Source: a virus
Lineage: Duplodnaviria; Heunggongvirae; Uroviricota; Caudoviricetes
DNA: 45,793 bases
Direction: 5' to 3' (one strand)
Virus record (IMG/VR): IMGVR_UViG_3300032287_000839
Coordinates: 1 to 45,793 of that record
The notes under the pieces were generated by a model. That model worked only from the letters and a program-made list of their open reading frames with translations. It was not told the DNA's origin and searched no databases. The translations under genes and the position numbers were made by a program. Position 1 is the first letter of the stretch, and every line of letters starts with the position of its first letter. Below, piece by piece: positions 1,436-5,891 of the stretch.

Positions 1436-1724
1436 GAACTTCCTTTTTTAATTGTTCTTCCTCTTCTTGGGAGGAAACTACGGCTTTCCATTTATTAAGA
1501 GGACATGCACAAGAAAGACATTTAGTCTTTGCTGCTAGCGTACATCCACACTCTGTACAATGTACATCTGGTCTTACAGACTCATGTTTTGTAGATATGA
1601 ATTCACATTCCTCACAGATAGCCATTCTTTCTTTTCCAACCTGTTGGATATGTTCTTTCATATCAGCAGCTGGGAATAGATTGTTTTTCCAGCCCTCGTA
1701 TATCTGGGAGAAATTAATCTTCAT
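1425..1724 (-). CDS. Cys-rich putative zinc-binding protein
   Basis: CEEC, CTECGC, KTKCLSCACPLNKW. Confidence 0.7.
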   Translation of the reverse strand: MKINFSQIYEGWKNNLFPAADMKEHIQQVGKERMAICEECEFISTKHESVRPDVHCTECGCTLAAKTKCLSCACPLNKWKAVVSSQEEEEQLKKEVHGK

Positions 1725-2067
1725 ATGTAATTTTGGTTTTAAGTTCGTTGATGGTTATATTGGCCTTGTCTATCGTCACCTGGGAAGACCTCTTCTTCTG
1801 ATCTGTAGACATTGGGTCTGCAATGATCTTTTCCATGGCTCCTATCTTAGCGTTCAATTGCTCCATCCTTTTTGTAGCCTTCTTCTGGTTAAAGAAGAAC
1901 TTCCCAAATCCAGCTATCTCCACACTGTTATTTAAATCCATAGCCTCGTTGGCTGACTGAAACTGGTGGTTAATCACTGCCTCTATCGTCTTCTCACTTG
2001 TCAACATCTTCACAGCTAACGTCCTAACCAAGAAGTCCTTGACCGACATGCTCACTGGCTTATCCAT
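1714..2067 (-). CDS. HU/IHF-like DNA-binding protein
   Basis: TIEAVINHQF...NNSVEIAGFGKFFF matches the HU signature V.I.GFG.F. Confidence 0.75.
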   Translation of the reverse strand: MDKPVSMSVKDFLVRTLAVKMLTSEKTIEAVINHQFQSANEAMDLNNSVEIAGFGKFFFNQKKATKRMEQLNAKIGAMEKIIADPMSTDQKKRSSQVTIDKANITINELKTKITYED

Positions 2068-2416
2068 GCGTTACATTTATTTGTAATGTAATGTCCTTAT
2101 CGAAGTTGAGCACAATGATTGGATTGACCTTCACCTTTGTACCGTCCTTTATAAACACCCCTATACGCTTAAGCTTACTAATCATATTGTTTATTGTGGG
2201 AGGACTGCTTTTATACTTCTCACAGAATTCTGAACGTATGTTAGCATAACTGATGTTACCCTTAATAGCTGTAAAGGCTATCAATTGTATCTCTCTAGGT
2301 GTAAGACCAAGATTGTTAACAGCTGACAACAAGCTATAATACTTCTCAGCTACACCAAAGCTATCTTCTAGCTGTGTCTTGAGCTTCTGTACAATAATGT
2401 TGTTGGTCTTTTCCAT
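2060..2416 (-). CDS. Hypothetical protein, possible winged-HTH
   Basis: 118 aa; LTPREIQLI...PTINNMISKLKRIGVFIK...KVKVNP; first gene after a promoter. Confidence 0.6.
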   Translation of the reverse strand: MEKTNNIIVQKLKTQLEDSFGVAEKYYSLLSAVNNLGLTPREIQLIAFTAIKGNISYANIRSEFCEKYKSSPPTINNMISKLKRIGVFIKDGTKVKVNPIIVLNFDKDITLQINVTHG

Positions 2417-2428
2417 ATTTAATTAATA

Positions 2429-2459
2429 CAAAGGTAGGTGTATTCTGTTGATTAACAAA
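2429..2459 (-). promoter_or_regulatory. Bacteroidetes sigma-ABfr-type promoter for the leftward operon
   Basis: Minus strand TTTG-N19-TACCTTTG, 12 nt before the ATG at 2416. Confidence 0.75.
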
Positions 2460-2543
2460 TAACTATTCTTATTATTGTTAAACTTATTGCTATATTATGC
2501 TTTATTTTTCCCAATTACATATAATAGAATATCTTTCTCAAAG

Positions 2544-2564
2544 CCCCCCCTTGTATTCCCCCCC
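2544..2564 (-). repeat. G7-N7-G7 tract (C7-TTGTATT-C7 on the plus strand)
   Basis: Seen directly; unusual in an AT-rich intergenic region. Confidence 0.8.
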
Positions 2565-2870
2565 AAAAATCTGTATAATATCTGACACTACCAAATTTAT
2601 TTTTAAATGTAAAGGGATAGCTTGACCAAAAATTTTTTTCAAAATTAGGAAACCTCTTATATTGATGGGAGGGGAGACCACTCCATATCACAACCCCCTG
2701 TGCAAGTTGGGAGGTTGGGGCTATCCCCCAGGCTCTTGGCTGAAGAGGTTGGATTACAATTAGGCAATTGAGAAAAGAAAATTGCCACACCCTCTCGTAA
2801 CCCTTCCTAGCCCAGTCATAACCCTTTCAAAATATTAGATAATTTATTCATAATCAAAAACCAAAACAAA

Positions 2871-3290
2871 ATGGCTCTAAATTTCAAGGTGCGTGAAGCA
2901 CAAACAACAGTAAATGCCACATCATTAGGCACAGTAGCTAACGCAGTAGGTAAAGGTGGAAGCGTAGACTTCATACCTTCTAACTTAACTTCTACAGACA
3001 GAAGGTTAGTTGTTATCCTTAAGAAGGCAGACGGTACACAAGACCAAGTGATTTGTTCTCAAGCTGTTAGCGATGCTTTCAGAAGTAAAGAAATCACATT
3101 GAACCAATTATTAGGGTTCGAAATTAAAGAACAAGTTAGTTCAGCAGGCGAATTGTACAACCAAATCAATATGCCAAGTTCTAACACAGGCTTAATCAGC
3201 TACTCAGTTGATAACATCGCTGTTGAAGAGTTCAAAGTAGAAGCTCTTACAGAAGATAAGATTAAGAATTTAATCTCAGTAAGCTTGTAA
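2871..3290 (+). CDS. Hypothetical protein, first gene of the rightward block
   Basis: 139 aa ORF with A-rich leader, followed by a hairpin. Confidence 0.85.
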   Translation: MALNFKVREAQTTVNATSLGTVANAVGKGGSVDFIPSNLTSTDRRLVVILKKADGTQDQVICSQAVSDAFRSKEITLNQLLGFEIKEQVSSAGELYNQINMPSSNTGLISYSVDNIAVEEFKVEALTEDKIKNLISVSL

Positions 3291-3300
3291 TTCATTGAAT

Positions 3301-3328
3301 AACAGGTGGTTAGTAATAGCCACTTGTT
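3301..3328 (+). terminator. Hairpin after the first rightward gene
   Basis: AACAGGTGGTTA-GTAA-TAGCCACTTGTT followed by ATTCTTCTTT. Confidence 0.55.
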
Positions 3329-3363
3329 ATTCTTCTTTAATTAGTTCATCATATTATATATAT

Positions 3364-3390
3364 GGGTGGGCTGTCAGGCTTTAGGGTGGG
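3364..3390 (+). repeat. GGGTGGG direct repeat, potential G-quadruplex
   Basis: GGG-T-GGG-N13-GGG-T-GGG. Confidence 0.7.
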
Positions 3391-3406
3391 AAAAAACACT
3401 GACAAT

Positions 3407-3422
3407 TGTTCCACGTGGAACA
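3407..3422. promoter_or_regulatory. parS: parS centromere-like palindrome (ParB-binding site)
   Basis: Perfect 16-bp palindrome TGTTCCACGTGGAACA matching the bacterial chromosomal parS consensus, in non-coding DNA. Confidence 0.8.
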
Positions 3423-3538
3423 TTTTATGTATATAAAATAGTAGGTGTGTCATCAATCCCTGGTATACAGGCTTTAAACAACATTCATCATCTATGCTAT
3501 AGCAATACAATATATATAGCATTAAAATCTACAATTAT

Positions 3539-3748
3539 ATGAAGAAGACATTCTTTCTCTCTATAGTATTATTAAGTTTAGTCTTTGTTATGGGCTTAGT
3601 AATAGGTCGTGTATACATGCCTCAATACGATATGCCTGAAGAGTTTAATACAGAGACTATTAGTAAGGATAGACTAAATCCTACACAGCTAATGGTTGTA
3701 TATGATGATAAGTCAGGTAAATACCTATTTGAATTCATGGATCAATAA
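3539..3748 (+). CDS. Small membrane-anchored protein
   Basis: N-terminal hydrophobic stretch. Confidence 0.7.
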   Translation: MKKTFFLSIVLLSLVFVMGLVIGRVYMPQYDMPEEFNTETISKDRLNPTQLMVVYDDKSGKYLFEFMDQ

Positions 3749-3773
3749 TACATACACACACAAATAACCAATT

Positions 3774-3866
3774 ATGAAAAACTTATTTAACCACGAGGAT
3801 GATGCATATGCAATTGTATTAATCCTCATTATAGCTCTTGGTTGTACATTAGGAGCTTTGATATAG
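3774..3866 (+). CDS. 30 aa hydrophobic peptide (MKNLFNHEDDAYAIVLILIIALGCTLGALI)
   Basis: Hand-translated; typical A-rich ATTATG start. Confidence 0.5.
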   Translation: MKNLFNHEDDAYAIVLILIIALGCTLGALI

Positions 3867-3970
3867 CCTTATTATATATCTCTTTAGCTATTAGCCTTTA
3901 GCGTGCCAAAGGTAGAGATATATTAAAGATAGTATGCACCAGTTGCATATTGTTTGTTTTTAATCATAAC

Positions 3971-4003
3971 GCACCTACATTCTCTATGTGGGTGCCTTTT
4001 TTT
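3971..4003 (+). terminator. Rho-independent terminator
   Basis: GCACCTACAT-TCTCT-ATGTGGGTGC followed by a T7 tract. Confidence 0.75.
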
Positions 4004-4044
4004 ACACAACACATTATTAATCAATCATTTAACAACACTTATTT

Positions 4045-4293
4045 ATGAAAAAATTTGAATTATACATAGCAATAGCTATATTTATCATCACTACGTTCCT
4101 TATTATTACTATACCAATGTCATTTGAGTATTCTAATGGACTATTGGCATTAGTTTGTTTTATCTCTGCTGCAGGTTATATTGCAGGCTATTTAGTATTA
4201 GAAAACTATTTGTCTAGACATGAAATGCACCATTATTTCAAGGGATTTGATGATGCAACATCATTATATGCACATCGTCCAAAACAACATTAA
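4045..4293 (+). CDS. Small membrane protein with two predicted TM segments
   Basis: Two hydrophobic segments. Confidence 0.7.
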   Translation: MKKFELYIAIAIFIITTFLIITIPMSFEYSNGLLALVCFISAAGYIAGYLVLENYLSRHEMHHYFKGFDDATSLYAHRPKQH

Positions 4294-4305
4294 TATAGCA
4301 ATAAT

Positions 4306-4446
4306 ATGAAGACAGTACAATTAACACCAAACGAATTCTATATATTTAAGCAGATTGCCAAGTTTAAATATATAATAGAACTTATTAAACATCAGCAGGT
4401 ATTTGTTACAGCTGATATCAACGAATTGTCCAAGTTGGGTTATTAG
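4306..4446 (+). CDS. 46 aa hypothetical protein (MKTVQLTPNEFYIFKQ...)
   Basis: Hand-translated; fills the gap before a terminator. Confidence 0.6.
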   Translation: MKTVQLTPNEFYIFKQIAKFKYIIELIKHQQVFVTADINELSKLGY

Positions 4447-4460
4447 GCAATGTGTGTGGG

Positions 4461-4496
4461 TAGAGCTCAGATATAATGTCTGGGCTCTATTTTTTA
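4461..4496 (+). terminator. Rho-independent terminator
   Basis: TAGAGCTCAGA-TATAATG-TCTGGGCTCTA followed by a T tract. Confidence 0.75.
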
Positions 4497-4517
4497 TTTA
4501 TCATTAAAAACTAACAT

Positions 4518-5051
4518 ATGTTTATATTAGGCAAATTAGTATTTCAATCTTACGTACCAAGTGAGTTTGAAAAAGGCATGCTATTCTTAAGAAGAATAAG
4601 CATGGTAAAGGTGAGAACACTTATAGAATATAATGAGGTGTTTGAACTAAAAGAGATTCCAAGAGATATAGAGTCATTTGTATTAATCAATGGTTGGCCT
4701 GTTGCTCCATTTATATTTAGTATAACAGCTAATCCTGATTCATTTGCTGATCCATTAGCTACACCAGACCAATTAGGTTGGTTTGATGAGGGTGAACATT
4801 CTGATGAGCTTCGAGATGTAAATATTAAAGATTATAACTATATATTAGAAGAACAAGATGGATATATAGAAATCGAAGTTGATGCATTTATAGATGAAGA
4901 TGATGAGGAAATAGTTACACCAACATTATATATGGATAAAGTGACTATTAGAATACCAACAGATGAAGAGTATTACGATGAGGATGATGAGGATTATGAT
5001 GATGAAGAAGAAGACTGGGATGATATGGATGATGAACCAGAAGAAGATTAG
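4518..5051 (+). CDS. Highly acidic early protein
   Basis: D/E-rich throughout; C-terminus DEEYYDEDDEDYDDEEEDWDDMDDEPEED. Confidence 0.85.
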   Translation: MFILGKLVFQSYVPSEFEKGMLFLRRISMVKVRTLIEYNEVFELKEIPRDIESFVLINGWPVAPFIFSITANPDSFADPLATPDQLGWFDEGEHSDELRDVNIKDYNYILEEQDGYIEIEVDAFIDEDDEEIVTPTLYMDKVTIRIPTDEEYYDEDDEDYDDEEEDWDDMDDEPEED

Positions 5052-5321: not shown

Positions 5322-5891
5322 ATGCCTAATTTATTACCTGAAACATATATACACAGAGATAATAAACATTTAGTGAGACAATTAATCTTTAAAGAGATAT
5401 ATGATAACTATTTGAAATATAAAGCTATTGTTGGATTAGGTGGACCTGACATTAACTCATATTGTGAACAGCTCTATAAAGCTGGAATCAAAAAGATTGA
5501 AATATGGGAGAATGATCAGGCCACAGCTAATAAACAAGCTAGATTTATTAAATATCCTGTTAGAATGAGATTTGGTGATGTACTAGCTGCTAATCCAGAT
5601 AAGATTAATACATTATATGATCTTGATTTTACGATAACAGTGAAGAACTTACATCAACATATATCCAAGTTTAAAGATAATTTCATTATGACATTCTCTG
5701 GTAGACTAAAAGGTGGGATTGAACGCATAATATATGAGTTCTTTTATGTACGTAATGAGAGTATATATTCTATTGTAGAGAAGCATAAAGATGGAATACC
5801 ATATAAATCCATTACAACAACTAGAGGCAGATATATGTTTGTCCCTTATTATGACACAACACCAATGTGTTGTATAGCTAAAATTAGATAA
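5322..5891 (+). CDS. Putative degenerate SAM-dependent methyltransferase-fold protein
   Basis: IVGLGGP, IEIWEND, FGDV and YDLDF occur in Rossmann MTase motif order I-IV. Confidence 0.45.
   Translation: MPNLLPETYIHRDNKHLVRQLIFKEIYDNYLKYKAIVGLGGPDINSYCEQLYKAGIKKIEIWENDQATANKQARFIKYPVRMRFGDVLAANPDKINTLYDLDFTITVKNLHQHISKFKDNFIMTFSGRLKGGIERIIYEFFYVRNESIYSIVEKHKDGIPYKSITTTRGRYMFVPYYDTTPMCCIAKIR

Follow-up and report, generated by a model that had tools for sequence, protein, structure and literature searches.

The stretch of DNA analysed here (the window) comprises the first 45.8 kb of a 109,793-bp IMG/VR record whose completeness is estimated at 95%. Its gene content points to a crAss-like phage of Bacteroidota, uncultured and from fresh water, which has a giant virion RNA polymerase (vRNAP). 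The window encodes a family-B-like DNA polymerase, a DnaB-like helicase, a primase-like protein and thioredoxin; no tRNAs were found in it. The element under study, a 16-bp palindrome of the parS type, lies about 0.6 kb to the right of a strand switch that separates a block of leftward genes from the rightward early and replication genes. The cumulative GC skew, calculated with the genome taken as a circle, reaches its minimum at ~2.9 kb, some 0.5 kb from the palindrome, and marks a possible origin of replication. The features of this segment are:

1714..2067, minus strand: HU/IHF-like DNA-binding protein (PF00216, E 2.9e-6; phrog_379), its gene adjoining that of m118
2060..2416, minus strand: m118, a conserved winged-helix DNA-binding protein, among the first genes of the leftward block and a rival candidate for binding the palindrome
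2417..2870, no strand: divergent non-coding control region, the position (class B, see below) of the parS-type site in most relatives
2609-2626, plus strand: 18-bp motif GTAAAGGGATAGCTTGAC (GTAAAG-N6-CTTGAC), in the control region
2627-2639: A5T7 box, within the control region
2664-2700: non-coding block GATGGGAGG...CACAACCCCCTG, strongly conserved and in the same place in nearly all relatives
2871..3290, plus strand: 139-aa gene without family match, followed by a strong terminator (3297-3332)
3364..3390, plus strand: direct repeat GGGTGGG-N13-GGGTGGG, just 5′ of parS and part of its class A context (see below)
3407..3422, no strand: parS TGTTCCACGTGGAACA, exact chromosomal type, single copy, with a core kept in relatives
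3422..3439, no strand: AT-rich inverted repeat ATTTTAT-N4-ATAAAAT, abutting parS

The palindrome TGTTCCACGTGGAACA is intergenic, being placed between the plus-strand gene 2871-3290 and a small plus-strand ORF (3539-3748). It is perfect over its 16 bp and agrees with the parS consensus TGTTNCACGTGNAACA at 16 of 16 positions. The first-pass annotation had described it in these terms, as a lone copy in non-coding DNA with no par gene in the window, and the description holds for the genome at large. Over the full 109,793 bp of the record, TGTTNCACGTGNAACA is matched by TGTTCCACGTGGAACA alone and the 14-bp parS core is likewise single-copy, while six-frame searches of the 95%-complete genome for ParB_N, HTH_ParB, ParA-type AAA_31 and tyrosine integrase were all negative. 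The site does not sit at a chimeric junction with host DNA, an eventuality raised at the first annotation, as the phage genes on its two sides (m118, m117 and, where present, p139 on the left; p177 and the DNA polymerase gene at a greater distance on the right) are syntenic in relatives. Zero blastn matches to the parS region were obtained in the GenBank phage collection, Rfam gave zero matches above chance over positions 2300-4600, and promoter scanning yielded scores no better than those of shuffled sequences. The product of the 139-aa gene had zero matches in the ESM Atlas.

Conservation of the site was investigated in 80 loci fetched from the 344 polymerase relatives present in IMG/VR, plus five loci reached via the 139-aa gene. 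The core GTTNCACGTGNAAC has exactly one match in 15 of 21 related records, against 0 of 21 for the reversed control; base composition predicts ~0.003 core matches per genome. Among records at least 90% complete, a single exact match is found in eight of nine; the complete relative G001 has zero exact sites genome-wide. The more relaxed pattern GTTCC-N4-GGAAC has one or two occurrences in each genome, within non-coding DNA that lies 0.4-1.1 kb to the right of the gene for the winged-helix protein. Most relatives carry their site in the same early non-coding region, which is without a site in ~40% of them. A phylogenetic tree of the polymerase (31 distinct loci) shows the exact 14-bp core to be dispersed (window, L003, L035, L037, L042 and L047).

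Within the early region the site occupies two contexts that are unrelated to each other. In class A, represented by the window, L082 and L042, it follows two GGGTGGG boxes; alignment places these boxes 5′ of the exact site in both L082 (site at 5519) and L042 (1962), and the adjoining ATTTTAT-N4-ATAAAAT repeat is only partially conserved in L082. In class B it is found 5′ of two conserved elements, a AAAATTTT box and a C-rich block. The window lacks the class B palindrome within 2417-2870, though the motifs that flank it persist. The 139-aa orphan gene is present in some relatives only; in L082 a parS-type site stands on either side of it (4733 and 5519), an arrangement that resembles a cassette inserted between repeats.

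Other recurrent motifs populate the control region. In all the relatives that have it (L002-L084), the motif GTAAAG-N6-CTTGAC, with CTTTAC in some of them, lies on the plus strand at 0.2-0.6 kb to the right of the m118 gene; it is often paired, with copies 32-33 bp apart, and is a candidate promoter element or m118 operator. The block GATGGGAGG...CACAACCCCCTG comes after the AAAATTTT box plus C-tracts; by analogy with RNAs reported between g004 and g006 of phage phi14:2, an abundant early-phase non-coding RNA may begin there. Several relatives share a further palindrome, TGTTCACG-N4-CGTGAACA, which is found 90-390 bp 5′ of the parS-type site (L006:2870, L021:5257, L044:1840 and L084:4268), and its arms resemble parS half-sites short of one base.

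Some lineages without an early-region site carry one within coding DNA. This is the case of GGTTACACGTGAAACA in the major-head gene of G002, G004, G008, G012 and G019, and of AGTTTCACGTGAAACC in an SPFH-like gene of G018. The exact 16-mer is also found at positions 552-567 of L182, a fragment of a relative with ~40-78% protein identity over the structural genes, inside a fibre-like gene (40% identity) where it encodes LFHVEQ; the source phage has LAIVEE there. The coding copies are asymmetric at N5/N12, so that no clean hairpin can be formed while the ParB consensus is still satisfied. The capsid copy encodes the peptide MVTRETG as does the source phage, from which it differs by two synonymous codons. 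Drift of the codons to this copy has a probability of about 0.02 to 0.3 per lineage, and the capsid-gene copies go back to one or two independent events. That capsid-gene and early-region sites complement each other in their distribution is no more than suggestive, as two synonymous codons suffice and the events are so few.

One account of such an element is a chance match or a scrap of host DNA captured without function. Its being a single copy, the large number of windows that had been screened, and the presence of a parS match with up to three mismatches in 12 of 100 shuffled sequences speak in its favour. Palindromy by itself is indeed unremarkable, the genome having three perfect palindromes of 16 bp where Markov shuffles have 3.1. 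The half-site GTTCCAC is modestly enriched (21 occurrences; 13±3.4 expected) and is split 17:4 between the strands, probably through a codon effect; GTTTCAC shows no enrichment genome-wide. The exact 16-mer is a different matter: base composition predicts ~1e-5 occurrences per genome, which bears out the initial claim that chance was an unlikely source. In IMG/VR it was found in at least 120 contigs, compared with three and three contigs for two composition-matched palindromes, one being the 16-mer read backwards and the other having shuffled arms around the retained CACGTG centre. It is therefore the identity with parS, and not palindromy, that is unusual, as shown by the count of three palindromes against 3.1 and the rarity of the matched controls. 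The site has moreover been kept across relatives whose flanks cannot be aligned, where the control is absent, and the DNA flanking it in the source phage is not host-like. Conservation and controls effectively refute this account, to which we attach a very small probability.

The viral contigs carrying the exact 16-mer extend well beyond the family. Thirty large IMG/VR records were inspected, 17 of them at least 90% complete and many with direct terminal repeats; none of the 30 encodes a ParB_N domain. Among the matches listed, 40 of 111 viral sites are intergenic, as compared with ~10% of non-coding DNA, and the rest are in coding sequence. The excess of the 16-mer and its ParB_N-less carriers indicate that orphan parS sites of host type recur among phages.

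The exact 16-mer is widespread in bacterial chromosomes, many of them from Bacteroidota. In five Bacteroidota genomes it forms tight clusters of two to five copies, and the reversed control matched once, in G024; the clusters were found in Flavobacterium soli, Chitinophaga, Daejeonella and metagenome-assembled genomes of Chitinophagaceae/Flavobacteriales. Each of the four cluster-bearing genomes searched encodes one canonical ParB (300-324 aa). At the level of the phylum, which is that at which the comparison with host parS was made, the variant carried by the phage is thus the one found in clusters in genomes that encode ParB.

A comparison with host parS variants, as envisaged when the site was first noticed, gave agreement over part of the palindrome. 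The bacterial set consisted of 120 loci of 8 kb around the exact site, with 270 sites having up to two mismatches. Half-site position 1 (with C, G or A) accounts for 60 of the 85 bacterial mismatches, and C-to-T changes at position 8, which give ATGT or ACAT centres, for 13. Relatives of the phage vary in a similar way: position 1 is G, C or A, the centres ATGT and ACAT occur, and the outgroup clade (L056) has the symmetric T/A variant GTTTCACGTGAAAC, altered exactly at the N positions of the consensus. The parS-like tolerance seen in relatives thus covers position 1, N5/N12 and C8T. Four or five lineages depart from it. In L005, the L017/27/28 clade, L064, L044 and L084 the arms GTTCC/GGAAC are intact but the centre is TTGT/ACAA, TTAT or ATAT, and none of these centres was found among the 270 bacterial sites. 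The TTGT centre alters the A at half-site position 7, which, according to work by Jalal et al. in 2020, reportedly separates parS from the Noc site. TTGT variants retain one GTTCCAC half-site, and some ParBs bind this half-site alone (PMC7022226); the intactness of the other arm is left unexplained. Intact arms around TTGT-type centres are the main observation for which ParB binding does not account. A hairpin would be consistent with them, and so would a dimeric protein other than ParB with contacts confined to the arms.

The dimeric protein could be one of the phage itself, m118 for instance, in which case the palindrome would be an operator controlling the divergent early/middle promoters and its identity with parS would be coincidental. 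The m118 gene adjoins the non-coding region, the site stands amid other conserved regulatory motifs, and the GTTCC/GGAAC arms outlast the centre in several lineages. An AlphaFold model of m118 (pLDDT 80) has as best Foldseek matches winged helix-turn-helix regulators of the Zur, ArsR/SmtB and MarR types, with weak E-values; the predicted fold would thus resemble that of repressors which bind palindromes as dimers. There is no sequence match to m118 in the PDB, and m118 and m117 are not paralogues. However, the recognition helix of m118 is invariant in 20 of 20 aligned relatives, including those whose region has no palindrome, and GTAAAG-N6-CTTGAC is a separate candidate target for the protein. 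An operator would have to match the host centromere by chance when matched palindromes are ~40 times rarer in viral contigs, and it explains neither the asymmetric coding copies nor the same 16-mer in unrelated ParB-less phages. We consider this role improbable, though more plausible than the others set against ParB binding.

A hairpin or cruciform could serve as a weak terminator or attenuator, as an origin element, or as a hairpin promoter for the virion RNA polymerase of the kind known in phage N4. The last role would be attractive, given that gp66 prefers single-stranded templates, transcribing ssDNA (preprint 10.1101/2020.03.07.982082), and that no early promoters are known for crAss-like phages. 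Such roles would suit an element located where the early region starts, 0.5 kb away from the minimum of the GC skew. Conserved arms around four variable central bases are what a stem-loop would show, L056 displays a compensatory change from C-G to T-A, and the consensus scan flags a terminator-like element with TTTTAT after the palindrome. The fold of the single-stranded DNA is nevertheless weak (-4 kcal/mol, z -1.3), 24 of 200 shuffled sequences folding equally well, and the T-run is not conserved, being absent in about half of the relatives; the role of intrinsic terminator was rejected on these grounds. The true terminator of the region, whose stem (3297-3332) ends 75 bp 5′ of parS, has an energy of -10.6 kcal/mol and a z of -6.2. 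In addition, ~40% of relatives have no such element in their early region, and phi14:2, crAss001, crAss002 and DAC15 are without it; this is hard to reconcile with an essential promoter or origin, and an N4-type hairpin promoter was discarded for this reason. Relative to one and the same block 3′ of it, the centre is found in either orientation (TTGT and ACAA). The identity with parS would once more be coincidental. A structural role of this kind appears even less likely than an operator. Neither of them explains why the sequence is that of the host centromere.

In our assessment the palindrome is probably a working loading site for the ParB of the host. This reading is the best one given the match to the parS of the host phylum, the lack of par genes, the conservation in relatives and the excess in viral genomes; since most relatives keep the site and the phage has no partition genes of its own, recruitment of host ParB is its most likely use. 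After DNA injection a host ParB dimer would recognize the site and close around the DNA as a CTP-dependent clamp. ParB could then spread over the neighbouring few kilobases, which include the divergent early control region and the possible origin. The resulting complex might couple the phage DNA to host ParA-driven positioning and/or to SMC loading, so that growing cells would retain, place or partition phage genomes that are not integrated. Another possibility is that ParB, by spreading, might damp the adjacent early promoters.

The borrowing of host ParABS had been proposed in the first-pass annotation with reference to carrier states of crAss-like phages. That proposal is supported in part, by the match to the parS of the host phylum, by conservation, by the lack of par genes and by the excess of orphan parS in viral contigs. 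The further downstream roles raised there, titration of host ParB and a resemblance to self in the face of SMC-type defences, are speculative, as are carrier-state segregation and SMC recruitment. The connection with crAss carrier states is weakened because the cultured crAss-like phages crAss001, crAss002, DAC15 and phi14:2 have no parS-like site within one mismatch; the site offers no explanation of the carrier state in cultured gut members of the group, which are without it. For the source phage and its relatives we see a host-driven carrier state as a tentative extension, less likely than ParB loading as such. The borrowed centromere would load ParB next to the origin and early promoters, the phage genome would be silenced and/or partitioned by host ParA/SMC, and selection would maintain exactly one parS, even within a capsid gene. 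If host ParB does load on these genomes, a group of Bacteroidota phages that look lytic would gain a simple, testable handle on persistence, localization or silencing of early genes without lysogeny genes. One 16-bp site, its centre variants and the relatives that lack it provide natural material for a clean experiment.

Compared with bacterial chromosomal parS, the phage site has the same 16 bp and, apart from the TTGT-type centres of several lineages, its relatives show the same tolerated variation (position 1, central CpG and N5/N12). The sampled Bacteroidota chromosomes have clusters of two to five sites with the cognate parAB on the same replicon, whereas the phage has one orphan site. 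Phages P1 (ParAB-parS) and N15 (SopAB, with dispersed centromeres) offer a likeness in extrachromosomal maintenance via a centromere-like site, but they encode their own ParA/ParB acting on their own, non-chromosomal sites; the source phage encodes neither protein. Phage N4 (PMC4496689) shares with it the injection of a phage RNA polymerase and a short inverted repeat where the early region starts. The N4 hairpin promoters are essential and present in several copies, while the element studied here can be absent from relatives, forms a weak fold and is identical to the host centromere; there is, in addition, no relationship between the vRNAPs of N4 and crAss-like phages.

The closest counterpart is the virulent Bacillus phage phi29. 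Its genome carries five parS sites and is segregated into the prespore by host Spo0J (PMC2731898). Phi29 and Nf, as described by Meijer et al. 2005 and summarized in the same paper, are likewise non-temperate, without ParA/ParB and with parS identical to that of the host, so that the principle of a host-type parS in a virulent phage was already known from phi29. Judged by its predicted gene content, the source phage would fit the same pattern, having a host-type parS yet neither parA, parB nor integrase. An orphan parS in Crassvirales or Bacteroidota phages was not found described in the literature, which does not prove that no description exists. In phi29 host ParB (Spo0J) acts on the phage genome, as it would in the source phage. 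Phi29 is a small protein-primed podovirus of a spore-former, with five sites whose role is prespore entrapment; the source phage is a 110-kb crAss-like phage with one site, from non-sporulating Bacteroidota. Because these hosts do not sporulate, the downstream use of the site must differ from the spore entrapment of phi29. The at least 40-fold excess of the 16-mer and its ParB-less carriers suggest that borrowing of the host centromere is a recurrent phage strategy that reaches beyond phi29.
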